This document shows positions 2,968 to 58,890 of a stretch of DNA of 64,000 nt, piece after piece. Source of the DNA: a virus. The notes beneath the pieces were generated by a model. It was not told the DNA's origin, did no database searches, and was given only the letters and a program-made list of their open reading frames with translations. Within the stretch, counting starts at the first letter, position 1; each line of letters starts with the position of its first letter. The position numbers were made by a program, and so were the translations under genes. Location: the UHGV virus genome UHGV-1493261; one strand, written 5' to 3'.

Positions 2968-2975
2968 AACATCCA

Positions 2976-2994
2976 CCCCTCTTCGGAGGGGTTT
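2976..2994 (+). terminator. Weak terminator/attenuator hairpin between the tailspike genes
   Basis: CCCCTC-TTCG-GAGGGG followed by a short TTT. Confidence 0.35.
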
Positions 2995-3017
2995 ACTAGA
3001 AAAACGAAGAGGTTGTT

Positions 3018-5126: not shown

Positions 5127-5132
5127 GTGTAA

Positions 5133-5240
5133 TGGCATTACTATGGGTGGTTCAGGTGTGTGAGTAATTACTTTATCGCTGAGTTTACAACACAATCTCA
5201 GGCTTTGGCTTTCATTAACCCAGGGTTACCACTATCATGA
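5133..5240 (+). pseudogene. Vestigial in-frame duplicate of a tailspike 3' end
   Basis: Just after the TAA-GTG-TAA stops the same frame encodes ..SNYFIAEFTTQSQALAFINPGLPLS*, paralogous to the true C-terminus ..ADYFVAEFTTQAEAMRFVNSRRALR* (about 70% nt identity by eye). Confidence 0.45.
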
Positions 5241-5242
5241 AC

Positions 5243-5271
5243 AAAACCCCGCTTCGGCGGGGTTCTTTTTT
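5243..5271 (+). terminator. Rho-independent terminator
   Basis: CCCCGC-TTCG-GCGGGG hairpin followed by TTCTTTTTT. Confidence 0.6.
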
Positions 5272-5645
5272 ATGTACCTCAAACAAACCATTATGTAGAC
5301 TGTTTTAGTCAATTACGACTTAACTAACCTGAGAAAATCCCTATGGGAAATGAACCAGATAATGTAACTCTAGCCAGACTCGAAGAGAGACTCTGGTAGA
5401 ACTCCGAGATTCAAACAATGACATAGGCAATAGACTAAAGAACGTTGAGGCCAATATGCCAACTTGTGTGTTGTCTGGTAACATCCAGTTGGGCGGTGTA
5501 CGTCGATAGTACTCTGAAACTCTGATTTCTTCGGCGTCAGGCATTAACAGTGTCCGCGTGTACCTGGGAGACCTGAACGAGGGCAAATAATTGATGTTAG
5601 GACACGGCTTCTGCTGAGATCACCACAACCACAGAAAGATAATCA

Positions 5646-5666
5646 AAAGCCCCTTTGGGGTTTATT
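5646..5666 (+). terminator. Small terminator-like hairpin
   Basis: CCCC-TTT-GGGG followed by TTTATT. Confidence 0.35.
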
Positions 5667-5693
5667 CCTTTCTATTCCTCGGTTGGCTGTATA

Positions 5694-5700
5694 CTAAATA
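5694..5700 (+). promoter_or_regulatory. Late-promoter-like motif CTAAATA
   Basis: actaaatatc 35 nt upstream of the ATG at 5735. Confidence 0.4.
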
Positions 5701-5734
5701 TCTCTATAATGGCACCTATCGATGGAGCATCAAA

Positions 5735-8700
5735 ATGCAAGAAATGAACCTCAACCGCCGCCCATATTGGGATGACTGGAATCCAGAGAAGCGCTTTTCG
5801 CGCATCCTATTCCGTCCGGCACCTATCAAAGTTCAGACGCGTGAACTGAACCAGATGCAGACCATCTTCCAGGATCAACTGGAGAAACTTGGCAACCATC
5901 TGTTCAAAGACGGTTCAATGGTTATCCCCGGCGGCCTGACGATCACCAACACTGCAGTTTCCATGAAGTTCACTCTGGCTGGTGGTAGTGAGTTCACTGA
6001 TCTGGAAGGTATCTCCGAACTCTATGTTCTGGGTAAGGACAACAATGCGAAAGCACGCGTCCTGTCTCTGGAACGTTACCCAGCTGAACCGGATACAATG
6101 TATGCCATCTTAGAGATGACTGAGAGTGGTAGTTCAGACGGTTTCGAAGCTGGCGACAACCTATACTTCAACACCTATGACGTGAACGATAACTTCATCC
6201 GTGTCGGCTATGGTGTGGCCGATACTGTTGGCGGTTCGATTGTCGCTCGCATGACAAAGGGTGTTTATTTCGTTCGTGGTATGTTCCTGGATGTTGAACC
6301 AACCACTTTGATCGTAGACAACGCATCGAACTCTACATCTCACCGCATTGGTTTCAAAGTTACAGAAACAATCGTGACTGAAGCAGAAGATGAAAGTCTG
6401 TTCTCCAATGCTCAGGGTACTCCGAACTCTAAAGCCCCTGGTGCGCATCGCCTGCGCGTCGACCTCGTGTTGTCTCGCTACGATTATGATGAAGAAGTGG
6501 CCGACTTCGTTGAACTGGCGAAGGTGAAAGATGGTCGTATTCAGTCTATGGTCGCCCAGTCAACGTACAACATCCTCGAAGACGCGATGGCTCAGCGCAC
6601 CTATGAGACCAATGGTGACTACAATGTCTCTACTCACCAGATCGACCTGCGTGAACATCTGAAAGAGAACAACAACGGCGGCGTTTACGCTCCGGCTGAA
6701 GGTGGTGATGAAAGCAAATTCGTGGCGGTTATGAAGCCAGGGATATCCTACGTTCGTGGTCGTCGTATCGAAAACCTCGGCGAAGAGCTGGTCACAATTG
6801 ACAAAGCCCGTGACACTGATACCCTGAACAACAACCCTGTGGCTGTTTCGACTGGTAACTATCTGGTGTCCAAGAACTCCAAAGGGGTTCCGGTTGTCTC
6901 CCGTACAATCCGCTACAAGTTCCTGAACGCATCCAGCGATGTACAGGCCACCGCCCTGCTGATTTCGGCAGAGCGCTCCGGTACTGAATTCCGTCTGTAT
7001 ATGCGCGACCTCGTTGTCACCGGGGACATGGGCACGGTGACCAAAGTCGCTTATGAAGAAAGCGGTACAACGATGTTCTCTTGCGAACTGGAGTCCAATC
7101 AGTTCAGTCAGAGTTCGGCGATTGACCTGATCTTCCCTCTTCCTGTATTCGGCGTGAAGACCCTAGCACCTACTGGCACCATCGACATCAACTACACCGT
7201 CCTGCGTTCTAACAAAATCACATTGAACGCGGCAGGCACAGGCTCTATCTCTGCTCCTCTGGGATACAGCTTCAGTCCTGAGTTTTCTTTGTACTCAGCA
7301 GCGAAGGCAGACGGCACCACCGCTCAGTTCGATATCTCTTCGGGGCTGTCCCTGGCTGGTACTCCGGTTGGTTCAGCACTACAGATTTCCCTGGGTGCGG
7401 GGTACGCCAACCAGTCTATCAACCTGTTGGCATTGATGGTCCGCACCACAGCGACGATCAAGACCAAGACTGTTACCGAAGTCACCGAGACTGTGACGTT
7501 TACTGTGGCAGCCAGCGTACAACTTGGGAACCACGACGGATACAAGCTGGTCAGCGTGAAGAACGCAAATGGTGCTGACGTCACCTCGAACTTCACTCTG
7601 GACGGCGGTCAACGCGATGCGGCGTACTACCGTTCTAACCTCATATCGTCTACTGGAGCCATCTCAGGCGTGTTCACAGTGGTGTACCAGTACTTCGCTC
7701 ACAGCTCTGGTGATTTCTTCACAGCGGACTCCTATTCGTCCATCAACTACCCAGACATCCCGAACTATGTTTCATCCAGTTCTGGTACTGTGTATGGGTT
7801 GGCCGACAGTCTGGACTTCCGTCCCAAGATCACCAGCGGAGCGTCTGACACGGACATGGTTCGCCCGAACACCGCGATCATCCTAGATGCAGAGTACTAT
7901 CTGCCTCGTATTGATGCCGTGTATCTGGCAGACAACGGCGTGTTCAACGTTGCTCGCGGTGTGAGTTCCAACAACCTGGCTTCCCCTGCGATCCCAGACA
8001 ACGGCATGCGCCTGTATGAATTAATGATCCCACCATACACAGCCAACATTGACGACATCCAGATTCGCACTATCGACAACCGCCGCTACACGATGCGCGA
8101 TATCGGTAAACTGGAGACCCGTATCTCCAATGTCGAATATTACACCTCACTGTCTCAGCTGGAATCCTCGGCGATGGCGCAACAGGTGTTCGATCCAATT
8201 ACTGGCAACCCGCGCTTCAAGAACGGTATCGCAGCAGACCCGTTCAAAGACTTCCGTCTGATCGACGATTTGTCTGCAGACTGGGTGGGTTCAATCGACA
8301 CTGACAATGGTCGCCTGCGTCCGTTTGTTCAGCAGAACGCGATTGACCTGACGCCAGTCGGTTGGAACAACGTTCAGGATGGTATGGTTGTATGCAACTA
8401 CACCCGTGAGATCTCTGTCCGCCAGGACTATGCAACCACGACCATCAACGTGAACCCGTATGCGGTGTTCAACTGGGAAGGTTTCCTGAAACTGAACCCG
8501 ACTACTGATTACTGGTTTGAGAACTACTATGTTACTCCACGTGTGATCAACGAAACGATCAACACCCGTGGTGCGATCAAAGAAGGTTCTGTGTACGGCA
8601 CATGGCGTACTGTGTCCGTGTCTGAGCGTGTGTGGGAACCGCATGGTGCGGGTGGTGTATGGTGGGGCTACCGCTACCGCACGACTGTGTCCACCCGTGA

Positions 8701-12887: not shown

Positions 12888-13583
12888 ATGGCCAGACCAT
12901 TTGAAAATTACTTCTACCATGATTCATTGATGAAATACATCAATCTGTTTGCCACCATTATGTCTGACCTGAAGGTGAACACAGAGCGTGGACTTATGGA
13001 AGTCCCATTACACATGGCCATCGGGAGACGCAATGACCTCAACAGGAACGTGCCGTCCAACATGCTTCCATTTGCGACCTTCTCTTTTGGTCAGTTTGAG
13101 ATCAACAAACAGGTGACGAAGACGTACCACAATCGACAATCGACACCAACAGCAGGGGCGAAGCAGCGAATCCCCCTGATTATCGATTTTGAGTACAATA
13201 TCCGAACCAAGAAATTGGTTGAGATGTTACAGGTGCTAGAGCAGGTTTATTCGGTATTCACTCCCTCTCTAGACTGTGGTATCAAGGACAACGATACACT
13301 ACAGCAAGACCAGAAGATCAAGATCCAACTGATCAGCCACCAGATGTCCGATAACTGGGAAGGGGATGCTTCTGATTCACCACACGTCGACTGCTCCTTC
13401 ATGTTCCAGCTGAGCGGCTTCATCTACGGGTATGACTATTGGGTGGACAACGGTGGAGGCGGGGATCCTAACGGGATCAAAGAGATAATTATCGAAATGT
13501 CTAATGATTTGAAAACACCGTGGACGGAACTGCCGGAGTGGTTCCGTGTTGACAAAGACGGTGTACATCATCCTGGAGATTGA
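12888..13583 (+). CDS. Tail completion/sheath stabiliser (gp15-like by position)
   Basis: 231-aa ORF with GGAGAA Shine-Dalgarno, directly upstream of the terminase genes. Confidence 0.5.
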   Translation: MARPFENYFYHDSLMKYINLFATIMSDLKVNTERGLMEVPLHMAIGRRNDLNRNVPSNMLPFATFSFGQFEINKQVTKTYHNRQSTPTAGAKQRIPLIIDFEYNIRTKKLVEMLQVLEQVYSVFTPSLDCGIKDNDTLQQDQKIKIQLISHQMSDNWEGDASDSPHVDCSFMFQLSGFIYGYDYWVDNGGGGDPNGIKEIIIEMSNDLKTPWTELPEWFRVDKDGVHHPGD

Positions 13584-13585
13584 TT

Positions 13586-14302
13586 ATGAGTGCTATGTCA
13601 GAACGCCTATTATCCACCCTCAGTGCTATCCAAGCGCGGGATGAGGTCGCTCAAGAAGTCATGGAGAAGACCTCGCCTATGGCCGGAAAAGATTACGATC
13701 CGGACACAGGCGAATGGTTGGGTGAAAAGCCTGCGGGGTATGAGTCTGCGGGGTATGAGCCTGTGGTGTTTCCTCCTTCATTGGACCCAGAAGAGCTGAA
13801 GCCCAAGGAGTCTAAGGTTCCAGACTTCGAAGACACTGATGCCACCACCGACTACAAACGTATCCGTGACACGACTTATGCCATGCAGGAAGCCACGATG
13901 TTCATGATGGGACAGGCAGCCAAACTTGCGACGACGACTGAAGCACCCCGTGCTTTCACAGTCTTCAAAGAGTTGGGTGAACTCATGCGCGGTCTGAACA
14001 AAGACCTGATGGAGAACCAGAAAACTATCAAGGCGGTCACGGGCGACAGAGAGCCACCTCCTGGAGACGAAACAACCGTCGAGGTCACCACGTCCCCTGA
14101 TGGCACAACCACGGTCAACGTCGGTAAACAGGCCAGGTCTTCTCGTGATCTACTGAAGACCATCGAAGACGCCCGTAAACGTGCTGAAGAACGTACTGCA
14201 GCGAAAGCTGCATCCAAAGGACCTGATCCCGAAGAAGATGTAATCGACGTTCAGGCAGAGCCGAAGGAAGAAGGTGAAGACGATGGCGTATCAGAAGCGT
14301 GA
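13586..14302 (+). CDS. gp16: Terminase small subunit (gp16-like)
   Basis: Segment DYKRIRDTTYAMQEATMFMMGQAAKLATTTEAPRAFTVFKELGELM aligns with remembered T4 gp16; acidic C-terminus; overlaps the large subunit start. Confidence 0.7.
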   Translation: MSAMSERLLSTLSAIQARDEVAQEVMEKTSPMAGKDYDPDTGEWLGEKPAGYESAGYEPVVFPPSLDPEELKPKESKVPDFEDTDATTDYKRIRDTTYAMQEATMFMMGQAAKLATTTEAPRAFTVFKELGELMRGLNKDLMENQKTIKAVTGDREPPPGDETTVEVTTSPDGTTTVNVGKQARSSRDLLKTIEDARKRAEERTAAKAASKGPDPEEDVIDVQAEPKEEGEDDGVSEA

Positions 14303-16493
14303 TGTAGAATATGCCCCGCTCAAGACGGGGTTTAAGACAGAAGACGTCAGACTGCGTATGGACCAAACGTTCATGCGCAAGCCGTCTGTGCGCGCTCCTC
14401 GCGTGGAGTTGATGCTAACAGATGAGCAGGAATCGGAGTTCGTCGAGTGCGCGATGGATGCCCATTACTTCGCCGCCAACTACTACAAGATCACGACCAT
14501 CGATAAAGGCTTCATCCTCTTTGACATGCACGATTACCAGAAGCAGTTGTTCCATGACTTCCAGGACTATCGATTCAATGCGGTCGTCCAGGCTCGTCAG
14601 TCTGGGAAATGTGTAAAAGGTGACACGCTTGTCACAGTTTACGATACTCTCAGCCAAGAGCAGTTGCTCCTGACCATAGGGGAGCTTCACAGCCGCTTCG
14701 AGGACGTCAACCACGCTGTGCCGCTGAATACCATTGGCAACCATGACAAGTTCGTGGACAGCCGCTTCGGCAAACGTTACTTTGTGCAATCCGATAGTGG
14801 CTGGGTTCCGGTTATCGCAGCGCATAAGACGAAGAAATATGCGGAATTCGTTATTGTGACTGTTACTGGGCGGCGAATTAACGTGGCCGACGAACATATA
14901 TTCTTCACTCCGGAAATGAAGGAGATATTTGCCAAAGACCTGAATGCTGGGTCATACATCATGACGTCAGAAGGTCCAGAAGAAATCCGTGAGATTTGGC
15001 AGACTGGTGAGACGCATCACATGTATGACCTACAGGTGAAATCTAGTGATCAGCGCTACTACACCAACGGCTTCCTCAGCCACAACACGACAGTCGTGGC
15101 AGCATTCCTTCTCTGGTATGCCATGTTCCACTCTGACAAAGAGATCGCAGTACTGGCGAACAAAGAGAAGCAGGCGATTGAAATCCTAGATCGTATTCGC
15201 AAAGCATATCAAGATTTGCCATTCTTCCTCCAACAGGGTTGTGAGAAGTTCGGTTCCACGCTGATCGAGTTCGAAAACGGATCAAAGATCTACGCCTATG
15301 CGACATCTTCCGACTCCATCCGTGGTCGATCTGTATCGCTCCTGTATGTGGACGAAGTGGCGTTCATTGAAAACGACTTTGAATTCTGGGAGTCTACATT
15401 CCCGGCGATTGCATCTGCAGAGACTTCACGTTGTATTCTGACCAGTACGCCGAAAGGTCAGCGCGGGTTGTTCTACGACATCGTCACCAAGGCGAACCCA
15501 GAACATCCACAATACAACGACTTCAAACTCACAGAGGTCCCATGGTATCGTGTTCCAACGTACACCAAAGATCCAGACTGGGAATCCAAACAGAGGGCGA
15601 AGCTGGGTGATGCACGTTTCGATCAAGAATTTGGCATTAAGTTCCGTGGTTCTGTGGGATCACTGATACCTGCCAAGTGTCTGGACAAGATGACCTCGAA
15701 GCTGTATCAGGAGCCGAACGAGTTCACCAAGATTTACCACGACTACGATCCGAAGCGCATTTATATGGGTATCGCAGATACAGGCAAGGGTGTCGAGGGG
15801 GATTATTCTGTGCTGACCATTATCGACATCACAGACTATCCTCACAAGATCGCAGCCAAGTATCGAAATAACACGATACCTCCAATGATGTATGCGTACA
15901 CAATCGCCGATATGGGCGAGAAGTATGGAACGTGCCCGATGCTAGTCGAGACTAACAACGACGTGGGTGGTCAGGTAATCACAATTCTATACCAGGAAAT
16001 TGAATATCCCGAGATCATCTTCACCACAACAGATACCAAGGGTACAGGCAAGAGAATCGGTGGTCGCCGCCCTGAACCTGGTATCAATACCAACAAGAAG
16101 GTGCGCACAAACGGCTGTGCCAACCTGAAAGCCCTGATTGAACGTGAAATGCTGGTGATAGATGACCAGGACACGATAGATGAACTCAGTACATTCGTAT
16201 GGACTGGGACAAGGTATGAAGCCGATGATGGTTGTCATGATGACTGTGTAATGCCTCTTGTGCTGTATGCATGGGCGGTGAAACAAGAATGGTTTAGTGA
16301 CCTCACCAACTCCAGTATCTCAGTCGACATGAGAGGACGGTTGTCTGCGATGGAAGAATCACAGATGCTACCATTTGGAGGTATGATGTCGGCGCCAGAT
16401 CCTCACTCTGTGGAGAACATCCCAGGGTTCGGTGGAATTCAGGTTTATGACGACCGCTCTGGTATGTCTATGGAAGAATGGCTGAGACGGTGA
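14283..16493 (+). CDS. gp17: Terminase large subunit (gp17-like), intein-containing
   Basis: Walker A QARQSGK|C..HN|T interrupted by a Hint domain; downstream ATPase/nuclease regions (LLYVDEVAF Walker B-like). ATG at 14283 (track GTG start 14274). Confidence 0.9.
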   Translation: MAYQKRDVEYAPLKTGFKTEDVRLRMDQTFMRKPSVRAPRVELMLTDEQESEFVECAMDAHYFAANYYKITTIDKGFILFDMHDYQKQLFHDFQDYRFNAVVQARQSGKCVKGDTLVTVYDTLSQEQLLLTIGELHSRFEDVNHAVPLNTIGNHDKFVDSRFGKRYFVQSDSGWVPVIAAHKTKKYAEFVIVTVTGRRINVADEHIFFTPEMKEIFAKDLNAGSYIMTSEGPEEIREIWQTGETHHMYDLQVKSSDQRYYTNGFLSHNTTVVAAFLLWYAMFHSDKEIAVLANKEKQAIEILDRIRKAYQDLPFFLQQGCEKFGSTLIEFENGSKIYAYATSSDSIRGRSVSLLYVDEVAFIENDFEFWESTFPAIASAETSRCILTSTPKGQRGLFYDIVTKANPEHPQYNDFKLTEVPWYRVPTYTKDPDWESKQRAKLGDARFDQEFGIKFRGSVGSLIPAKCLDKMTSKLYQEPNEFTKIYHDYDPKRIYMGIADTGKGVEGDYSVLTIIDITDYPHKIAAKYRNNTIPPMMYAYTIADMGEKYGTCPMLVETNNDVGGQVITILYQEIEYPEIIFTTTDTKGTGKRIGGRRPEPGINTNKKVRTNGCANLKALIEREMLVIDDQDTIDELSTFVWTGTRYEADDGCHDDCVMPLVLYAWAVKQEWFSDLTNSSISVDMRGRLSAMEESQMLPFGGMMSAPDPHSVENIPGFGGIQVYDDRSGMSMEEWLRR
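14610..15086 (+). mobile_element. Mini-intein (159 aa, no endonuclease domain) in the terminase P-loop
   Basis: Starts with Cys immediately after QSGK, ends ..MYDLQVKSSDQRYYTNGFLSHN followed by Thr (block F/G signature); removal restores QSGKT. Confidence 0.8.
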
Positions 16494-18478: not shown

Positions 18479-18502
18479 CCCAGATTATTTTATTGAATTA
18501 CT

Positions 18503-18529
18503 TTACTTCTTCAATAACTCACGTATAAT
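18503..18529 (+). promoter_or_regulatory. Sigma70-like early promoter candidate
   Basis: TTTACT -35, 15-nt spacer, TATAAT -10; the -10 context TATAATTCTAAA recurs at 26705. Confidence 0.4.
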
Positions 18530-18577
18530 TCTAAACATAAGCAGTACGACACCAACTTGAAACGAAGGATCTATATC

Positions 18578-18942: not shown

Positions 18943-18961
18943 CCCGCTGAGGCGGGGTTTT
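18943..18961. terminator. Bidirectional terminator hairpin between convergent genes
   Basis: CCCCGC-TGAG-GCGGGG followed by TTTTAGTTTT; overlaps the stop of the minus-strand gene. Confidence 0.5.
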
Positions 18962-20744
18962 AGTTTTCCAGTTCATACCGGATAAGACCACACCCCCAGA
19001 TACGCCCCAACCCGGCTTCTATCGCCAGCATATCTTCTGTTTTACCTTCTATATCGTATCCAAGTTTAAGGAATTTCTCTTTCCTGAAATTGAATTTGTG
19101 TATACGTAAGCTATAGTCTGGGGTCACATATTTGTAATCAGGGGGAAGGATTTCCTTTTCAACAAATCCGTTATTCAGGTAAACATTTTTCAGACGACTG
19201 ACAACACAACGATCACCAAAAGAATATACTGTCTCACCCCGATGTCGAGCGATATAATATTTCAGCAAGCGTGAGAATGCGCCATGGCAATTGTTAGAAG
19301 CAAATCTCACCAATTCAATACCATGCACTCGTTTGGTAAACAACATCACAGCCTGGATATTCCCAGTTTTGTCTACAAGGTGTATATAATCTGTCGCCAC
19401 CACACCACCTTGTATATGGAATCGGTCGAGAAAGTCCTTGGACGTCCTATAGGATCCTTCCAAAATGGTATGTTGGCGAGCGTATGACAATGGTTTCCCT
19501 ATCCCCAATTTTGCTTTAAGGAGTGATTTGACCACTTCCTGTTTCTCAACCCACTCATCTTCCCAGATATGGATTAATTGAATGCCCTGGGCTTCACAAT
19601 ACATGGTCTTTTCAAGATGGTAGTCTTTGTATCGATATTTCTCCGAATGCCAGTACAACCCATTAAATTCTATTGCCAACTTATGTTCTGGGCAGTATAT
19701 GTCTATCTGGCGTGTGGTCACCCTACCGTTGAACATTTTACCTCTGAGGACGGAGAAATTACCAGATTCATAAACGACACCCAATGAATCCAGGTATGAA
19801 CATATTTCTATTTCTGGCTGCGTTTGGTTTTGGCTGCTGGGGTACGTGAAAGAGTTCCTATATTCTTCAGAAGAGAAATAGTGAGATACGCCGTATTTTT
19901 CTTTTGAAATGATCCTGGTATTGACCTGGCTTCTATCCCATATAGCCTTTACCTTCAACGGATAATCAACCCCATATTTTAAGACGCATGTTTTCTTTCT
20001 CTTTTCTATAATGGAATTGAGGAACATTGGATGATCCACACCATAGATCTTCCTCCAAGTCTCAATCACCCTTTCCCTCACTTCTGGCATTTTCATGACG
20101 TGTGATACGCCATAGCGTTCCATGACGGAAGCAGCCACTCTGTCCTTTATAACATCAGACTTCATAGGGTGGTCGACCCCATATTTCTTAAGGACAGTTT
20201 CCCGTGACTTTTGTTTTACTTCTTCCAGCTGGAATGTGTTGGCTACGCCATATTTCTCTGATATGGCGTTTTCTAAGTTGGTCCGTTCTGAGCATCCCGC
20301 CTTCATTGATTTTCGTTGGCATTCTTCGGAACAAAACTTTTTGTATCTGGGTGGTTGGGCTTCCATTTCTAAGCCGACGTCAGCACCGCAAGTGACACAC
20401 TGCGACTTCGGAATATCGTACAGCCAAGCAGTTATCGCTTGTGGTTCTTCTAATAGGTCGTTGTGTGACACCACGTATCCAACAACATCAACCCCAGTAT
20501 GGGCTGTGAGTAGGGGATGAGAGATAAGTTTGTAGTTCAACGAACCATCTTTCTTCCTGAGTTTACTATCAACCCAAGAGCGGCATTCAGTTTCGGTCGT
20601 CGGGATGTTATCCAACAAACCCGGATTGCGTTTCATCGTTCCCAGCATGAATGATTTACATTCGTCACTACAATACAACGCAGCCTTCCTGGTTGGGGTG
20701 AACGGTTTGTGGCAGCATGAACAATTTTTATCGGGGAATGACAT
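18960..20744 (-). CDS. Freestanding homing-endonuclease-like protein: two zinc ribbons, tandem KYGV repeats, Vsr/DUF559-like PD-(D/E)xK nuclease domain
   Basis: 594 aa from ATG at 20744 (GAGGA Shine-Dalgarno). CxCC..CxxxC and CxxC..CxxxC motifs; about 33-aa repeats containing KYGV(x)HP; RQIDIYCPEHKLAIEFNGLYWH..IHIWEDEW nuclease core. Inserted on the opposite strand between sheath and tube genes. Confidence 0.8.
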   Translation of the reverse strand: MSFPDKNCSCCHKPFTPTRKAALYCSDECKSFMLGTMKRNPGLLDNIPTTETECRSWVDSKLRKKDGSLNYKLISHPLLTAHTGVDVVGYVVSHNDLLEEPQAITAWLYDIPKSQCVTCGADVGLEMEAQPPRYKKFCSEECQRKSMKAGCSERTNLENAISEKYGVANTFQLEEVKQKSRETVLKKYGVDHPMKSDVIKDRVAASVMERYGVSHVMKMPEVRERVIETWRKIYGVDHPMFLNSIIEKRKKTCVLKYGVDYPLKVKAIWDRSQVNTRIISKEKYGVSHYFSSEEYRNSFTYPSSQNQTQPEIEICSYLDSLGVVYESGNFSVLRGKMFNGRVTTRQIDIYCPEHKLAIEFNGLYWHSEKYRYKDYHLEKTMYCEAQGIQLIHIWEDEWVEKQEVVKSLLKAKLGIGKPLSYARQHTILEGSYRTSKDFLDRFHIQGGVVATDYIHLVDKTGNIQAVMLFTKRVHGIELVRFASNNCHGAFSRLLKYYIARHRGETVYSFGDRCVVSRLKNVYLNNGFVEKEILPPDYKYVTPDYSLRIHKFNFRKEKFLKLGYDIEGKTEDMLAIEAGLGRIWGCGLIRYELEN

Positions 20745-20792
20745 AATAAATATCCTCACTTTGGAGTATTTTAACCCCCATTTATTTCAAAA

Positions 20793-26661: not shown

Positions 26662-26688
26662 CCCCGCCAACGTGCGGGGTTTTCTTTT
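26662..26688 (+). terminator. Rho-independent terminator
   Basis: CCCCGC-CAACGT-GCGGGG followed by TTTTCTTTT. Confidence 0.6.
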
Positions 26689-26737
26689 GAAACAAACCAG
26701 CATATAATTCTAAAATAATAACAGGTAGGATTAGATC

Positions 26738-27796
26738 ATGATTCACATATGCCGGACATGCAAAACCTCATTCGTCAATGCCCAGTCAAAGGCAGTCTAC
26801 TGTAGTGTTGATTGCAGAACCTTTTACCAAACAGTTGGCATCAAATTCTCCCCAGAGTTAATGTCGGACGCCAAATTTATTCAAACGGAAGATGACTACA
26901 AAGACTTCATCCGTGAATATTTCTATATGAAGAATGGCAACCTGAATTACCAACTACTGTCTTCACCCCTGTTGGCATCTTACCTTGGCGTAGACCCCCT
27001 CAAATATGCCAACCAGCACAACTCTGAAGAATCCGTGAACGCCCGTGTATTGGTCTGGTTACACGACGTCAAACCAACACCTTGTATCACCTGCGGTGCT
27101 AGAACTTCTGTCGAGATTAAGAAGTCTATCCCATCCTACCGGAAATATTGTTCGGAGGAATGCTATGCCCAATCAATGAAGTTGGGTGGTGAAGCCCGTA
27201 AAGTCTTGGACAAGACAATCCTTGACAAATATGGTGTATCCAACGTATTCCAGAATGAATCTGTAAAGGGCAGGGCAAGGGCTACCTTACTTCGGCGTTT
27301 CGGTGCGGAACATGTTATGCAATCAGAACATGGGCGACAGCTGTTCAAAGATTCCGTGATGGAGAAGTATGGAGTTGAGCATCCGATGCAGGTGGAAGAG
27401 GTCAAACAACGCGCCTGGGAAACCCTCGGTGCTCGGTCTTGGTATGCTACCCCAGAAGGTAAAGCGGCACGAGAGAAGGCATTCGGGGAGTATGAGGGCG
27501 GTCATCCTATGCGTGATGCTGCAGTCTTAAACAAATTGATCAAGACCAATTTAGAAAGATATGGAAAGGAATGGACGGGACAAGTACAAGAAATTCGAGA
27601 TAAGATAGGAAAAACTGTATTCGATCGTTACGGGGTTAAATGCTCTCTAAACACAGAAGTTTGCTTAGAAAATGCCAGGATAAAAAATATTGAGTTATAT
27701 GGCGTTCCGTATGCTATGCAAAACAAATCCGTTTGGGAATACGTTATTTCTTTCCGTAAATTCCAGTCCAAACCAGAAATAGAAATATCCGAGTAG
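26738..27796 (+). CDS. Homing-endonuclease-like paralog, N-terminal part (zinc ribbons + KYGV repeats), ends at an in-frame amber codon
   Basis: Paralogous to the N-terminal half of the minus-strand gene 18960-20744; TAG at 27794-27796 aligns with a Tyr codon of the intact copy. Confidence 0.6.
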   Translation: MIHICRTCKTSFVNAQSKAVYCSVDCRTFYQTVGIKFSPELMSDAKFIQTEDDYKDFIREYFYMKNGNLNYQLLSSPLLASYLGVDPLKYANQHNSEESVNARVLVWLHDVKPTPCITCGARTSVEIKKSIPSYRKYCSEECYAQSMKLGGEARKVLDKTILDKYGVSNVFQNESVKGRARATLLRRFGAEHVMQSEHGRQLFKDSVMEKYGVEHPMQVEEVKQRAWETLGARSWYATPEGKAAREKAFGEYEGGHPMRDAAVLNKLIKTNLERYGKEWTGQVQEIRDKIGKTVFDRYGVKCSLNTEVCLENARIKNIELYGVPYAMQNKSVWEYVISFRKFQSKPEIEISE

Positions 27797-39843: not shown

Positions 39844-39875
39844 AACAGAGGCTATAATGGCCTCTGTTTTCTTAT
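39844..39875 (+). terminator. Rho-independent terminator
   Basis: AACAGAGGC-TATAATG-GCCTCTGTT followed by TTTTCTT; the track ATG at 39857 lies in the loop. Confidence 0.6.
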
Positions 39876-39889
39876 TCTGTGAGGATACC

Positions 39890-41086
39890 ATGAAAGACAA
39901 AGCCCTGGACGTCCCGTACTGCGGTGTCCGCGAAGAAAAGATAAAGTCGGCCAAACCGGTTCTCAGTCCGACCCATACCCGCCTGTCTTACGAATGGATG
40001 CGCGATCGTTATCAGATCCACGTCAAGAAGGACGTCCAGCGCCTTCCTGCTCCTTGGACTGATAATCCCATATTACGCCAGGTTAAATTCTGTAACGTCC
40101 GGAGAGAGCACGACAGGCAGTCTCTCAACCTGATCAATAACATTGTCAAGAACGATGCTCTGGGCATGGCAGACAAGATGTTCAACTGCGTGTTGTTCCG
40201 CATGTTCAACCTCTGGGATCCGATCCAGGCTATCGGCGGCGCGATGACGATCAAAGAATTCGCCAAGATCAACCTCGATGCAACCCGCGAACGACTTCAG
40301 AAGTTCGAGGCCGACGGCGGTAAAGTATTCACCAATGCCTTCAACACGGGCGGTCTGAAGCAATGCCTGGCTTTCCCTGAGATGGTTGTCAACCACAAGG
40401 AGCAGCGCTTCGGTGGGATGATGGTGAATCTGATCTGTAAAGACGGTTCAACCCAGAACATGGATTATAAAGAAGCCAAGGCGATAGCCGAAGCAGAGCC
40501 GGACTTCTACACCATCGAAGGTTGGGAACCGTACATGCCAATGCGTGTCATCCGCTCCCTGAAGGCATTCGTCAACAAGTATCCAAATTATTTCCATGAC
40601 CTGCTGCGCCTTGATACGCCTTTGGAAGTATACCAGCGCATGTACGACGACATCGAAGGGCTTGGTCCATTCCTGGCCTATCAGATCTGGGTTGATTTCA
40701 CGTACATTCCTGGATATCCTTTCAGTGAGAACCACTTCACGGTTGCTGGACCAGGCTGTCGCGCAGGGATTGATCTTCTGTTCCTGAACAAAGACGGTAT
40801 GACCCACGAAGAATGCATCTTCTGGTTGCGGGACAATCAGGACGCAGTTTATGGTCCTCTTGGGTATAACAGGGAAGAATTTTGGTCTGAGGAAGAGCCT
40901 TGGGATCGCCATTTAAATATAATGGCAGGAGAAAATATGTTTTGTGAACTTCAGAAATATACCCGTTGTGTAGAGGCCATACAGCAAGGTAAAAAACCGC
41001 GCGGGAAGGTTGGATACGATGGGGAAGGACGACCTAAAGCGACGACATCTGGTTCTAAAAACCTACTAAATTTATTTAAAAAGTAA
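39890..41086 (+). CDS. Hypothetical protein (398 aa), enzyme-like
   Basis: ATG with GAGGA Shine-Dalgarno after the terminator; no family recognised. Confidence 0.6.
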   Translation: MKDKALDVPYCGVREEKIKSAKPVLSPTHTRLSYEWMRDRYQIHVKKDVQRLPAPWTDNPILRQVKFCNVRREHDRQSLNLINNIVKNDALGMADKMFNCVLFRMFNLWDPIQAIGGAMTIKEFAKINLDATRERLQKFEADGGKVFTNAFNTGGLKQCLAFPEMVVNHKEQRFGGMMVNLICKDGSTQNMDYKEAKAIAEAEPDFYTIEGWEPYMPMRVIRSLKAFVNKYPNYFHDLLRLDTPLEVYQRMYDDIEGLGPFLAYQIWVDFTYIPGYPFSENHFTVAGPGCRAGIDLLFLNKDGMTHEECIFWLRDNQDAVYGPLGYNREEFWSEEEPWDRHLNIMAGENMFCELQKYTRCVEAIQQGKKPRGKVGYDGEGRPKATTSGSKNLLNLFKK

Positions 41087-41145
41087 CTTACTTTGTGAGT
41101 TAATAAAGTATATTATAACAGGAACTTTCATTTGGAGTTCCTGTT

Positions 41146-42075
41146 ATGTTTTACGAATTATTGATTTCTAAAGGCGGTAAACCGCATTTTATCAAGAAGT
41201 ATTTGAGGATGATTCAATCTTTCAAATATTCTGATGGTGACTACACTGAATTACACCACATCCTTCCCAAGAGCATGTTCCCTGAATATTCTAAAGATAA
41301 GATCAATTTGGCAAGACTTACTGGCAGGCAACATTATCTTGCCCATGTGTGTTTGGCCTTGGCTTTCCCGAATTCTGATATGGTATATGCTGTTATTTTG
41401 ATGAGCCGTGGGGGTAGGTATACACCAACGGGTATAAAATTTAATTCTCACCTTTACGAAAAGTTAAGGAAAGAATTTGGACAAAGAATATCCAAACTCA
41501 CAAAGGGTGTCTCTAAATGCGTCGGGGCAAACAACCCAATGTATGGGAGAAGAGGAAAGAATAATCCCCAATATAGATATAAGAGAACTCCAGAGCAAGT
41601 CAAGAAAATTACCAAAGGATTGATGAAAATCCATGAAAGGATGGCTTCTGATCCTGAATATAAAAGGCGGGTTTTAGAGAAACGCCGCGCCAACATGGAT
41701 TTAGAACAATTTTCTGAACGTGCCAGGAAAGCTAAACTTGGGGAACTTAATCCAAATCATGGCAAAGATATTACCAACACGTTTACCCCTGAACAACGAC
41801 AGAAACAAATAGAAGGTATTAGAAAAGCCCATTTATCAAAAATGCCCTGGGAGAAACCGCGTTGGTCTGATGAAAAGGACATGTATTGGGCGAAAGCTGA
41901 TAAATTCCTTGAAGCAATGAAAACAATGAAAAGAGCGGAAGCCCTCATGCATGTGTACGGAACAAAGGATTTGAAGGCTTTTAATGCGACAAACAGCATT
42001 ATCGAACGTTTCAATAGAGGGTGGGAACCTTTGAAATGTCCTAAATGGACAGAACGATACGGTTCTTCTGAATAA
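41146..42075 (+). CDS. HNH homing endonuclease with NUMOD3-like motifs
   Basis: TELHHILPKSMFPEY .. NLARLTGRQHYLAHV HNH core; NPMYGRRGKNNP and GELNPNHGKD NUMOD3-like; AT-rich coding sequence; hairpin CAGGAACT..AGTTCCTG immediately upstream. Confidence 0.8.
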   Translation: MFYELLISKGGKPHFIKKYLRMIQSFKYSDGDYTELHHILPKSMFPEYSKDKINLARLTGRQHYLAHVCLALAFPNSDMVYAVILMSRGGRYTPTGIKFNSHLYEKLRKEFGQRISKLTKGVSKCVGANNPMYGRRGKNNPQYRYKRTPEQVKKITKGLMKIHERMASDPEYKRRVLEKRRANMDLEQFSERARKAKLGELNPNHGKDITNTFTPEQRQKQIEGIRKAHLSKMPWEKPRWSDEKDMYWAKADKFLEAMKTMKRAEALMHVYGTKDLKAFNATNSIIERFNRGWEPLKCPKWTERYGSSE

Positions 42076-42115
42076 AGATTCCCTTTACTTCGTTCTTCAA
42101 TAACTCAATCCAGCG

Positions 42116-42169
42116 TATATTGACCTCACTTAAACGAAGCGCCCTGGCAAACGGGGCGCACATTTGAAC
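42116..42169 (+). promoter_or_regulatory. Cassette: TATATT, GC hairpin (GCGCCC..GGGCGC), CATTTGAAC
   Basis: Same architecture as the cassette at 36961. Confidence 0.35.
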
Positions 42170-42189
42170 TGAAACAGGAAGATTACATC

Positions 42190-44208
42190 ATGTCAGATTT
42201 TAAGTCCTTCGCAGTAGCTGTCAACAATAACGTGCTGGCCATGTCAGCAACTGGTCTGTTCATGACCAACATCGATAAAGATGCTCTGTGGGATCTGTAT
42301 CTGTCTTCTTTCCCTGCTGGCACTAACCCGCTTTATCGTGAGCGTACCGAGCACGACTGCACCTGCTGTAAACAATTCATCCGTAACATTGGCGGTGTGG
42401 TCACCATCGACTCCGACCTGAACGTGATCTCTATCTGGGATAACATTCAGCTGGGTAACGAATACGACGTTGTCTCTGCGGCGCTGTCAGCGTATGTTAA
42501 GCAGCACGCAATCGTCGACGTGTACTTCAACGACACCAAGAAAGTTGGTGTTGAGTCGAATCACGAAATGAAAGACGGTATTGTCCGCACCTACAACCAC
42601 TTCCACACCGACCTGCTGGGTAGCTATGTTCTGCGGGCAGATACCATCGCTTCTAAGAAGGGTGAAATCCGCCAGGCGATTGAAGTGTTTGAGCGCGGCC
42701 TGCGCGAACTGTCTCTGGAATCGGCTGAAATCGTCCTGGAACTGATCGATCAGAATTCTCTGTATCGCGGTGAAGAGCACAAAGCGGCAGTGCAGGCGTT
42801 CGTGGTGAACAAGACCATGTACGAACAAACTGCAGAAGAGAAACGCGCTCTGTGGGCTTGGCGCACTGGCTACCGTGCAAACGGTCATACCCCTCACGGC
42901 ATTCGTAATACCGTGATTGGCTCTCTGCTGGTAGACCTCAATGAAGGCCGGGATCTGGAAACCGCCGTGAAGTCCTTTGAAGCCAAAGTCGCTCCGACGA
43001 ACTACAAGCGCCCGACTGCGCTGGTGACAAAGTCGATGATCGAAAACGCGCAGAAAGAAGTCGAAGCGCTGGGTCTGACTGATTCGCTGGGTCGCCGTTA
43101 TGCCGTGTATGACGATCTGACCATCAACAACGTTCTGTTCGCCGATCTGGCAGCGCAGAAGAAGATGGACCCGTTTGCTCAACTGGCGTCTGAAGTGAAG
43201 ACTCCGACCAAGTCCCTGGATAAGGTTGAAGAGATCACCATCGACGACTTCCTGGCCAACGTGTTGCCAAAGGCGCATTCCATGGAAGTGCTGGTTGAGA
43301 ACTCTCACATTGGCAACCTGATGTCTCTGATCGCTCCGGCGAACCCAGATGCACCTAACCTGTTCAAGTGGAACAACGGCTTCAGCTGGTCATACAACGG
43401 TGAAGTGGCAGACTCCATCAAAGAGCGCGTGAAGACCGCTGGTGGCAACGTTGACAGCTTCCTCCGTGTGTCACTGGCTTGGCATAACAACGACGACCTG
43501 GATCTGAGCCTGAACGATCCTCTTCACAACCACGTGTACTTCCGCAACCGTCGTTCGTCAACAGGTGCAACCCTGGACATCGATATGAACGGTATGGATG
43601 GCATTGACCCAAATCGCCGTCCGGTGGAGAACATCTTCTTCAGCGATGAACGCAAGCTACGTGACGGGAATTATGAGTTCTATGTCACCAACTACAACAA
43701 GCGTGAAACCTGTGACGTTGGCTTCGAAATCGAAGTCGAATACAAAGGCCAGACCAAGCGCTTCTCACATCCTGGTCTGGGTAACAAAGATCGCACGTTG
43801 GCTGTTGTGGTTCAGGTTCGCGCTGGTCAGGTAGTAGACATCCGTTCCACCCTGAAAGACGACGAACGCTCTCAGGAAATCTGGGGTATCAAGACTGCTA
43901 CCTTCCAGAAAGTACAGCTGGTCCTGAATTCACCAAACCATTGGGACGGCGAGCAGACGGGCAACAAGCACGTGTTCTTCATCCTGGAAGGTTGCGCCAA
44001 CCCTGTGGGCACCCGTGGCTTCTACAACGAATATCTGAAGCCGGAACTGGATAAACACCGCAAGGTTTTTGAAATGTTAGGTGGTAAGATTAAAGTACAG
44101 CCAAGCACTGAGCAGCTGTCCGGTCTGGGCTTCTCTACCACCCAACGCAACCACGTGTTCGTGAAGGTGAGCGGCTCGTTCAACCGCACTGTGAAAGTTG
44201 TGTTCTAA
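42190..44208 (+). CDS. Hypothetical protein (672 aa)
   Basis: Uninterrupted ORF with AGGAAG Shine-Dalgarno; contains HDCTCC and EMKDG motifs but no family recognised. Confidence 0.7.
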   Translation: MSDFKSFAVAVNNNVLAMSATGLFMTNIDKDALWDLYLSSFPAGTNPLYRERTEHDCTCCKQFIRNIGGVVTIDSDLNVISIWDNIQLGNEYDVVSAALSAYVKQHAIVDVYFNDTKKVGVESNHEMKDGIVRTYNHFHTDLLGSYVLRADTIASKKGEIRQAIEVFERGLRELSLESAEIVLELIDQNSLYRGEEHKAAVQAFVVNKTMYEQTAEEKRALWAWRTGYRANGHTPHGIRNTVIGSLLVDLNEGRDLETAVKSFEAKVAPTNYKRPTALVTKSMIENAQKEVEALGLTDSLGRRYAVYDDLTINNVLFADLAAQKKMDPFAQLASEVKTPTKSLDKVEEITIDDFLANVLPKAHSMEVLVENSHIGNLMSLIAPANPDAPNLFKWNNGFSWSYNGEVADSIKERVKTAGGNVDSFLRVSLAWHNNDDLDLSLNDPLHNHVYFRNRRSSTGATLDIDMNGMDGIDPNRRPVENIFFSDERKLRDGNYEFYVTNYNKRETCDVGFEIEVEYKGQTKRFSHPGLGNKDRTLAVVVQVRAGQVVDIRSTLKDDERSQEIWGIKTATFQKVQLVLNSPNHWDGEQTGNKHVFFILEGCANPVGTRGFYNEYLKPELDKHRKVFEMLGGKIKVQPSTEQLSGLGFSTTQRNHVFVKVSGSFNRTVKVVF

Positions 44209-48872: not shown

Positions 48873-48902
48873 GTTTACTTCCTCTAAGGAATGTCCTATT
48901 AT
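48873..48902 (+). promoter_or_regulatory. Sigma70-like early promoter candidate
   Basis: GTTTAC -35 (T4 early-like), 18-nt spacer, TATTAT -10. Confidence 0.45.
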
Positions 48903-48953
48903 TCAATAACTGGCGAACGATGGGTTCACCGGGTTGAAAGGTAAGATTATATC

Positions 48954-58098: not shown

Positions 58099-58890
58099 AT
58101 GGGAATGAACTTCGTGGACAGAGGGGAGAATGTCGTCAAATATTTCACAGACGAAGATAACGAGCGTGTCATCAGCATCCTGCGTGATTGGATCCCTGCT
58201 CGTAAGAAGGCTCTGGCTGAAGGCACCAGGCTTCCAAAGATCCCCAACTATGTTGCTCTACAGGTCCAGCGCATCATCACCAAGATGAGCACCCGCTACA
58301 ACTATCGCGACTATCCCTTCCGTGAAGACATGGTCTCTGAAGCAATAGTCAACATATTGCGCTACCTCCACACATTTGACGTCGAACACATTGGAAAGAA
58401 AGGGAAGATCAACTTCTTCTCTTGGGTGACCATGTGTGCTGATCGATCATTTGCTCGTAAACTGAACATCGAAGAAGAGCACACGTACATTAAATTGCGC
58501 TCATTTGAAGAGGCGGGTGGGTTCGCAGGCCTGGCAGACGACCCCGACTTCCAACAAGAGATCTTTGTTGACGCGACAGGGATTGGTATGGACTTCCGTG
58601 AGCGTATCGGCAACTTTGAGAACAAAAAGGACGCTCAAAGACAGAAGGAGCGAGAGAAGGTGGAGGCAGCTCGTCTCGCAGAATCGAATAAAAAGATTGC
58701 GAAAGGCATACTTCAATACATGGCGCAGGCTAAGAATACGGTAACAGCGCAGGCCGAAGACAATTCAGATCAGGACTTTGGCAAAACCCAATTCAATCTG
58801 GAAGATGATATCTGTGCGATGGAACCAGATTGGGAAGCCCTCAAACAAAGATTAGAAGAACGGGAGAAAAAGAATAATGGCGATTGCTAA
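58099..58890 (+). CDS. Late-transcription sigma factor (gp55-like), tentative
   Basis: Directly upstream of gp47/gp46 as in T4; FFSWVTMCADRSFARKLNIEEE resembles T4 gp55 ITQACFNAFVQRIKKERKE. Longer than T4 gp55 (263 vs 185 aa). Confidence 0.5.
   Translation: MGMNFVDRGENVVKYFTDEDNERVISILRDWIPARKKALAEGTRLPKIPNYVALQVQRIITKMSTRYNYRDYPFREDMVSEAIVNILRYLHTFDVEHIGKKGKINFFSWVTMCADRSFARKLNIEEEHTYIKLRSFEEAGGFAGLADDPDFQQEIFVDATGIGMDFRERIGNFENKKDAQRQKEREKVEAARLAESNKKIAKGILQYMAQAKNTVTAQAEDNSDQDFGKTQFNLEDDICAMEPDWEALKQRLEEREKKNNGDC

Follow-up and report, generated by a model that had tools for sequence, protein, structure and literature searches.

A free-standing Mob-type HNH homing endonuclease gene of an Ackermannviridae phage, very probably mobile as a cassette at the 3' end of the 5-hmdU DNA kinase gene

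We analysed a stretch of 64,000 nt (the window) of the virus genome UHGV-1493261, which is that of an Agtrevirus-like phage of the family Ackermannviridae with Escherichia phage RPN242 (Aglimvirinae) as its best match (95% identity) among 282 related records. The open reading frame (ORF) at positions 41146-42075 is very probably a free-standing homing endonuclease gene (HEG) of the T4 Mob type with an HNH nuclease domain, mobile as a 1045-nt cassette at the 3' end of the Ackermannviridae gene for 5-hydroxymethyldeoxyuridine (5-hmdU) DNA kinase. An earlier note, made from the sequence alone, had proposed a mobile endonuclease at this place, and the comparison of alleles and of base composition lends support to that interpretation: the gene neither shares the composition of its flanks nor is present in all relatives. 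Its nuclease activity and homing are what we infer from these data.

Results

Alignment with the HEG-less phage ZQ1 (95% identity in the flanks) places the cassette between a left anchor, ...AAACCGCGCGGGAAGGTTGGATAYGAYGG (...GGATAYGAYGG), and a right anchor, CTGAATAAAGATTCCC; the 80 nt that it replaces code for the C-terminus of the kinase in the empty allele (Table 1). Exactly 965 bp are missing in ZQ1, PC3, PH4, SW16-7, SP-9-14, A221, and CECAV_050, all with flanks about 95% identical. The presence/absence polymorphism among related phages that the earlier note had named as a check was found at one precise site, with the left end of the cassette in 43 records (38 from Salmonella, 3 from Dickeya, and 2 from Escherichia phages) and the empty-site sequence in at least 104 (at least 80% of the query covered), while the locus itself is present in about 273-282 records; these counts include some GenBank/RefSeq duplicates. 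Both allele states occur within the Agtrevirus-like phages and within Kuttervirus, and Limestonevirus carries either an HNH or a GIY-YIG version, so that the spread is patchy. The left end of the cassette in the window is 98.1% identical to that of the Salmonella Kuttervirus phages PM10, Chennai, and barely, and 94.5% identical to that of RPN242, which indicates exchange between genera.

The cassette supplies a substitute C-terminus for the kinase, since the type of tail differs consistently between HNH-plus and empty alleles. The seven HNH-plus alleles (that of the window and those of RPN242, AV101, phiD3, Mansal, SJ3, and Det7) all have a kinase that ends in variants of ...GEGQPKATTSGSKNLLNLFKK before the stop codon, whereas in the four empty alleles (ZQ1, Ag3, ECML-4, and Marshall) it ends in ...YKKRCDEVVLKRGSVNLLDRLKKPE (...GGEYKKRCDEVVLKRGSVNLLDRLKKPE), one of them with ...SGDY..., and the GIY-YIG alleles have kinase tails of other types. 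Tail type tracks the type of insert, not the genus of the phage. A reading of the 3' end of the HEG as a duplicated kinase tail was dropped, as CTGAATAA alone is common to the two and the proteins are unrelated.

Between the window and AV101, phiD3, SJ3, and Det7, the substitute tail and the spacer behind it (41023-41145) are 96-98% identical (84% in the case of Mansal), in comparisons where the body of the kinase is 84-92% and the HEG 75-88% identical. Over the spacer and about 30 nt of flanking coding sequence (90 nt aligned), mean column identity among seven alleles is 96%. The synonymous divergence (dS) of the HEG is 0.27-0.9 or saturated between alleles, and it is 0.7-0.9 in the cross-genus comparisons of tail and spacer. 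The conservation of tail and spacer is unexplained; a regulatory RNA, an operator, or repeated conversion could underlie it. In each of the eight alleles examined the endonuclease ORF is intact (307-309 aa). The ratio of nonsynonymous to synonymous divergence (dN/dS) against orthologues, 0.10-0.22 overall, stays below 0.32 in every domain, so that the protein is under purifying selection.

Upstream of the cassette, the kinase gene contains an AT-rich, strongly diverged patch at 40905-40960 (around aa DRHLNIMAGENM) that only RPN242 has likewise. It was considered as a co-conversion tract and rejected, given that the adjoining 100 nt or so diverge among the empty alleles too (67-69% identity where the kinase body has 80-90%) and that AV101, which is HEG-plus, has the ZQ1-type sequence there. 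By these alignments the patch appears to be a local hypervariable segment of the kinase, unlinked to the endonuclease gene.

The protein carries ELHHILPKSMFPEYSKDKINLARLTGRQHYLAHV, the HNH core pointed out earlier, exactly where it was claimed, with the signature ELHHILP..N54..H63...H67 of the HNH (His-Me finger) nucleases. Besides the PHROGs assignment given in Table 1, which is to a family named 'homing endonuclease', it matches phrog_12434, 'HNH endonuclease' (5e-18, aa 16-92). In an exhaustive HMMER search the family proved very large, with 17,619 cluster representatives reaching E <= 1e-3, of which 8,005 reach E <= 1e-10. The motif HH[ILVM].P...N...H...H is present in 152 of 159 retrieved proteins (mostly the best representative matches), and two alignments, of 78 and 91 homologues, show no variation at Y19, H37, H38, P41, N54, H63, H67, and L70. 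Among the 78, Pfam finds HNH (PF01844) in 24, HNH_5 in 9 (E <= 0.01), and NUMOD3 in 49 (best 4.9e-31), with one further match each to I-HmuI_NUMOD-like and I-TevI_DNA-bd; HNH membership by Pfam is transitive, running through homologues rather than through the protein itself.

A characterized relative is T4 MobE, to which the protein is 34% identical over 95 aa (BLASTP, E = 3e-13) and the family profile aligns over 118 columns (hhalign, 99.8% probability, E = 4.6e-30); tblastn matches include Straboviridae genes annotated as Mob-like. As in the T4 Mob type, a nuclease domain homologous to that of T4 Mob is joined to a distinct C-terminal region, and the annotation of orthologues already reads 'homing endonuclease', 'T4 MobE-like', 'MobD', or 'NUMOD3 motif family protein'. 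Cas8f-HNH, McrA, and a group II intron maturase have HNH motifs with which positions 33-63 of the family profile align (E = 0.04-0.15). A model of the N-terminal 126 residues (predicted local distance difference test, pLDDT, 88.8; predicted template modelling score, pTM, 0.78) has strands at 34-38 and 55-59 and a helix at 60-73, the predicted beta-beta-alpha arrangement expected of an HNH core. The HNH assignment of the earlier note has good support at the level of the family.

The same is true of its NUMOD3-like motifs, which are recognized through the homologues counted above and through the family profile, which matches the I-TevI DNA-binding domain 1i3j over the NUMOD3-like region (E = 0.0024); an orthologue of 72% identity has a precomputed PF07460 match. 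The C-terminal module is modelled with pLDDT 87-93 over aa 240-300. For its helical domain no relative was found in PDB, Pfam, or by fold, a PDB profile search included, and kinship with the DUF7487 region of two other endonuclease genes of the window was dropped when hhalign returned nothing. We presume that the C-terminal module binds DNA, because this is the Mob architecture described in PMC2988022. A further paralogue of the HNH gene was not found within the window.

The ORF is, as had been noticed, visibly more AT-rich than its surroundings. Its GC content is 0.3925 against a mean of 0.489 (standard deviation 0.031) for 930-nt windows of the 64 kb, of which 0.5% are as low, and the overall minimum begins at 41056. 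GC at third codon positions (GC3) is 0.384, as compared with 0.56-0.66 in 14 of 15 other genes checked, the exception being the tail-spike gene at 3018-5126 (0.40). GC is low from about 40900 to about 42150, a tract that takes in the last 185 nt or so of the kinase gene (GC 0.398) and the 59-nt spacer (GC 0.288), and this sharp anomaly is explained by the endonuclease gene.

The hairpin that had been seen at the ribosome-binding site (RBS) proved stronger than claimed, and its stem sequesters both the Shine-Dalgarno (SD) sequence GGAG (41134-41137) and the AUG (41146-41148) of the endonuclease gene. Folded alone it has -17.8 kcal/mol (z = -5.9; 0 of 200 shuffles equally stable), and in an 89-nt context -30.4 kcal/mol (z = -7.0). 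The stem is kept across seven alleles, in which its sole change is U-A to U.G. A metagenomic orthologue at the same locus (58% identical) keeps the outer stem by a compensatory change from AACAG/CUGUU to AGCAG/CUGCU and has lost the inner stem. Hairpins that sequester the RBS are documented for homing endonuclease genes of the T4 type, in which late transcripts escape them thanks to a late promoter (PMC2988022). A model of that kind, in which a late transcript bypasses the hairpin, found no support here: the kinase-endonuclease spacer holds no T4-style late promoter TATAAATA (which occurs once in the window), no copy of CTAAATA, and no canonical site in a sigma-70 scan.

The spacer does hold a CTTACTT...TATATT element resembling a recurrent promoter-like motif of the window, and its function is putative. 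That motif, CTTTACTT...TTCAATAACTC...GTATAAT/GTATATT, lies 5' of several genes (18480-18556, 26680-26737, 42080-42125, and 48880-48953), the spacer element being a variant of it. Elsewhere in the window CTAAATA has 11 copies on the + strand (642, 5694, 12205, 12245, 16497, 20793, 24334, 30806, 34003, 63101, and 63687) and 0 on the - strand, mostly just 5' of genes, and at least six copies stand in spacers directly before start codons, mostly of structural genes. It is probably the core of the phage's late promoters. At 58099-58890 the window carries the gene for a gp55-like late sigma factor.

The endonuclease gene stands between two complete ORFs, that of the kinase, whose longest frame begins at 39857 and whose annotated start in relatives corresponds to 39890, and that of a conserved 672-aa protein of unknown function (phrog_1735). 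It is free-standing and not intron-encoded, because Rfam (E <= 1) gave no intron in 40500-42600, with only a sub-threshold microRNA-model match on the hairpin, and Rfam and ARAGORN found no tRNA or known RNA family at the locus.

The corresponding slot of Dickeya phage Kamild and Klebsiella phage FKP14 encodes a 259-261-aa protein that starts 1 nt past the kinase stop and whose N-terminus resembles SegE_GIY-YIG (4.8e-4) and GIY-YIG (5.7e-3) of Pfam, both below the cut-offs. Residues 195-309 of the window protein are identical to the Kamild protein at 87 of 115 positions (76%; 87% over the last 60 residues) and to the FKP14 protein at 78 of 111, a match equal to or closer than the similarity of some HNH orthologues to the window protein. 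A 261-aa homologue, P0009 of Dickeya phage JA15, to which the Kamild protein is essentially identical in sequence, is named 'F-LimVI' in the database; F-LimVI is ORF114 of LIMEstone1 (PMC3296691). The phage phiD3 carries the HNH version though it is conspecific with Kamild. Judged from these alignments, the nuclease head appears to have been swapped on a common C-terminal module in one slot.

In relatives, small cargo ORFs stand between the endonuclease gene and the CTGAATAA junction (Table 1); the window has none. Those of 74-97 aa have no family match and accompany HNH and GIY-YIG versions alike, and in phiD3 the 135-aa zinc-ribbon ORF stands beside the HNH gene, in pertopsoe alone.

Table 1. 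Features of the kinase-endonuclease locus, of related loci, and of other elements discussed in the text (window positions unless a phage is named)
Feature	Position	Strand	Basis or remark
Homing endonuclease gene	41146..42075	+	ATG start, 309 aa, stop codon included in coordinates; PHROG 655 (phrog_655), E = 2.1e-60
Allele-specific cassette, 1045 nt	41023..42067	+	Replaces 80 nt of the empty allele; alignment with HEG-less ZQ1
Substitute kinase C-terminal coding tail, ...EGRPKATTSGSKNLLNLFKK and stop	41023..41086	+	Cassette-borne; outside the Pfam kinase domain
Kinase-endonuclease spacer	41087..41145	+	GC 0.29; nearly invariant in HNH-plus alleles; holds promoter-like CTTACTT...TATATTAT
RNA hairpin, 15-bp stem and 5-nt loop CAUUU	41114..41148	+	41114-41128 pairs with 41134-41148
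Mob-type HNH (His-Me finger) nuclease domain, aa ~14-120	41185..41505	+	Homology to T4 MobE; N-terminal model
Candidate catalytic residues	H37/H38 41254-41259; N54 41305-41307; H63 41332-41334; H67 41344-41346	+	Invariant in homologues
First NUMOD3-like repeat, GANNPMYGRRGKNNPQY..TPEQVKKITKGL	41524..41619	+	Profile match to 1i3j; PF07460 matches of homologues; own score sub-threshold
C-terminal module, aa 195-309: second NUMOD3-like repeat and helical domain	41728..42072	+	Common to same-slot GIY-YIG endonucleases
Right junction, CTGAATAA	42068..42075	+	Last codons and stop of the HEG are the bases ending the kinase gene in empty alleles
5-hmdU DNA kinase gene (thymidine-hypermodification pathway), host gene	39890..41086	+	Pfam HMUDK_hel PF18723, E = 1.1e-78, aa 41-376 of 409
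Downstream spacer	42076..42189	+	In both allele types; 100% identical to ZQ1; holds the RBS of the next gene
GC hairpin GCGCCCTGGCAAACGGGGCGC in downstream spacer	42139-42159	+	
GIY-YIG-type (F-LimVI-like) gene	Kamild MH807812 (L007) 2869-3654; FKP14 (L014) 1478-2257		Compare window 41728-42072
74-aa cargo ORF	AV101 (L003) 3078-3302; Det7 (L010) 2394-2618; FKP14 (L014) 2262-2486		
97-aa cargo ORF	SJ3 (L006) 3074-3367		
135-aa zinc-ribbon cargo ORF	phiD3 (L004) 3062-3469; pertopsoe (L009) 1411-1818		Unannotated in phiD3
Endonuclease paralogue	18960-20759	-	phrog_3339, 5e-191; DUF7487 and Vsr-like MTES_1575/DUF559 region
Endonuclease paralogue	26738-27796	+	phrog_3339, 3.5e-34; DUF7487 only; looks truncated
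Large terminase, 739 aa	14274-16493	+	Intein_splicing match aa 130-231; Terminase_6N aa 272-464

Discussion

We propose that the cassette spreads by intronless homing. In a mixed infection, the NUMOD3-like and C-terminal modules would let the enzyme bind a related phage's empty allele and nick or cut it, the target probably lying within or next to the 80 nt of kinase tail that are missing from HEG-plus genomes. Recombination-dependent repair would then copy the donor cassette by way of the left and right anchors, to judge from the allele boundaries observed. The substitute C-terminus would keep the kinase intact, and the carrier genome should be immune because the empty-site sequence is gone from it. 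The hairpin that buries the SD sequence and the AUG may hold translation of the nuclease low or restrict it in time, by analogy with T4 I-TevI, segB, and Aeh1 mobE (PMC2988022).

Several points weigh against this interpretation. When the protein was run alone against Pfam (matches accepted up to E = 10), the best HNH match was HNH_4 at E = 0.18 and 12.2 bits, below the 22-bit cut-off, and NUMOD3 PF07460 matched aa 195-208 at E = 0.59 and 10.6 bits, below its cut-off of 20.4; searches of NCBIfam and of PDB (phmmer) with the protein alone returned nothing. Co-conversion of the flanks could not be demonstrated, the diverged patch falling in a stretch of the kinase that varies among empty alleles. 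A literature search gave no biochemical or genetic data on cleavage, target site, or mobility for this orthologue group. The DNA that the enzyme would need to cut is presumably hypermodified at thymidine, and there is no promoter placed to bypass the hairpin, so that the route to efficient translation of the endonuclease is unexplained.

A different account of the same data is that of an endonuclease formerly mobile and now fixed or domesticated, retained for marker exclusion in co-infection, for local recombination or amplification, or for regulation of its neighbours by DNA binding, and not for its own spread. The low dN/dS and the eight intact ORFs do speak of selection on the protein, and the near identity of tail and spacer across genera, set against the much larger dS of the HEG, suggests a constraint at the nucleotide level such as an operator or a regulatory RNA. 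There are also T4 precedents, with I-TevI acting as an autorepressor and endonucleases driving marker exclusion (PMC2988022), and SegB-driven amplification of anti-defence loci is reported (PMC13096335). However, most relatives lack the gene, so that it is dispensable, and transfer that is still going on would fit both its foreign composition and its patchy occurrence in several genera. Domestication, which would be compatible with homing as well, we regard as unlikely.

It is quite improbable that the gene is a decaying, catalytically dead remnant that persists only for want of a deletion so far. Defunct HEGs are numerous in phages, T4 I-TevIII being one (PMC2790892), the protein alone scores under the Pfam HNH and NUMOD3 thresholds, and so strong a sequestration of RBS and AUG could mean a silent gene; but the residues of the catalytic motif are all invariant, all eight alleles are of full length with dN/dS well below 1 in every domain, and the N-terminal domain is modelled with high confidence. 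A non-mobile HNH accessory factor of the packaging terminase or of another core replication nuclease is scarcely credible, for although some phage HNH proteins assist terminases, the terminase genes (13580-16493) are about 25 kb away, the gene is missing from most close relatives, which already contradicts such a role, and both the Mob-type architecture with NUMOD3-like repeats and the foreign composition speak against it.

A mobile Mob-type endonuclease remains the preferred reading, and it has close parallels. T4 MobE, whose gene lies between nrdA and nrdB, is likewise a free-standing HNH homing endonuclease (Wilson & Edgell, 2009, PMC2790892); the N-terminal nuclease domains are homologous, both genes are free-standing and lie directly 3' of a gene of nucleotide metabolism, and by analogy the expected chemistry would be a strand-specific nick followed by recombinational repair. 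In contrast, MobE, at 141 aa, is without the long NUMOD3-like and C-terminal modules, has no promoter and an AUG that overlaps the nrdA stop, where the present gene has its 59-nt spacer and SD/AUG hairpin, and does not bring a substitute C-terminus for the gene upstream; host gene and phage family differ as well. The hairpin recalls those of Aeromonas phage Aeh1 mobE and of T4 I-TevI, I-TevII, I-TevIII, and segB, in which a stable RNA hairpin likewise sequesters the RBS of the endonuclease (Edgell et al., 2010, PMC2988022). These, however, have a late promoter in or beside the hairpin from which late transcripts escape, whereas the spacer studied here has no CTAAATA and its stem extends over the AUG too.

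Like the present gene, F-LimVI of Dickeya phage LIMEstone1, a free-standing, I-TevI-like GIY-YIG endonuclease (Adriaenssens et al., 2012, PMC3296691), and its Kamild and FKP14 orthologues occupy the post-kinase slot, have the same right junction, share most of the C-terminal 115 residues, and bring a substitute kinase tail of their own. They differ in having a GIY-YIG catalytic domain instead of HNH, and in lacking spacer and hairpin. A nuclease at the N-terminus with extended 'beads on a string' DNA-binding modules behind it is also the layout of I-HmuI, the nicking HNH enzyme of Bacillus phage SPO1, and of I-TevI, a GIY-YIG enzyme whose DNA-binding region contains NUMOD3; both of these are intron-encoded, unlike the free-standing gene described here, and the terminal helical domain of the latter has no detectable PDB relative.

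NUMOD modules are common to different endonuclease families, and different endonuclease genes reportedly substitute for one another at one locus (Sandegren et al., 2005). We put forward as a tentative but real possibility that the post-kinase slot is an arena in which one DNA-binding module (aa 195-309) swaps between a Mob-type HNH enzyme, probably a nickase, and a Seg/I-TevI-type GIY-YIG enzyme, probably a double-strand cutter, both addressing the same empty site and each cassette bearing its own immunising kinase C-terminus. The near-invariant tail and spacer might act as operator for the common module. If this were true, related phages would hold competing homing elements that differ in chemistry.

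The finding is in itself of little importance and its usefulness is modest. Ackermannviridae are already rich in free-standing homing endonuclease genes, with 14 in LIMEstone1 (PMC3296691) and 18 in Kamild (PMC6267328), and the gene described here is of a well-known phage type, ordinary for this family apart from the unrelated nuclease head that some relatives have, in the same slot, on a shared tail module. The points of added interest are the cassette-borne kinase C-terminus, the exchange of HNH and GIY-YIG heads, and the conserved tail and spacer, all of them within known paradigms. For annotation, the cassette accounts for a 965-bp indel among closely related therapeutic and biocontrol phages and for the variable C-terminus of the kinase, which is cassette-borne. 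The HNH/GIY-YIG pair, as a natural domain swap, offers a matched pair for the effects of nicking and double-strand cutting on homing efficiency. An enzyme that would have to act on thymidine-hypermodified DNA could also interest those who seek nucleases tolerating modified bases.

With regard to other mobile elements, the earlier note had counted four selfish insertions in the window, adding two Vsr-like endonuclease paralogues and a terminase intein to the HNH gene. The two phrog_3339 homing endonuclease paralogues were recovered, one of them with a Vsr-like region, and the GC3 of both is lowered (0.46-0.47). The intein did not reach the Pfam cut-off, the Intein_splicing match of the terminase having E = 7.4e-7 and 29.5 bits against 35.8; a mini-intein there is plausible on this sub-threshold match. 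The tail-spike/tail-fibre genes at 670-2967 and 3018-5126 have low GC (0.42 and 0.47), with the low GC3 of the second given above, and are probably another horizontally exchanged module, one for host range.

Exchange is also apparent around the kinase in other phages. The kinase and downstream locus of Marshall, a Salmonella phage of the genus Kuttervirus, is 91-99% identical to that of ZQ1 (Aglimvirinae) despite the different subfamilies, a likeness that reflects mosaic exchange of the whole region. Both Marshall and Kamild have another HNH endonuclease gene between the MazG and kinase genes. At 3770-5804 of the Kamild locus (L007), downstream of the endonuclease gene, several small ORFs, one labelled 'nicotinamide phosphoribosyltransferase', are annotated where a single phrog_1735-type gene of about 670 aa is expected; possible reasons are decay of the gene, frameshifts from sequencing, or that this is another region. 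The record OR844942.1, 'Enterococcus phage Efm 3-10', contains the Ackermannviridae locus at about 81% identity, and its host label or its assembly is probably wrong.

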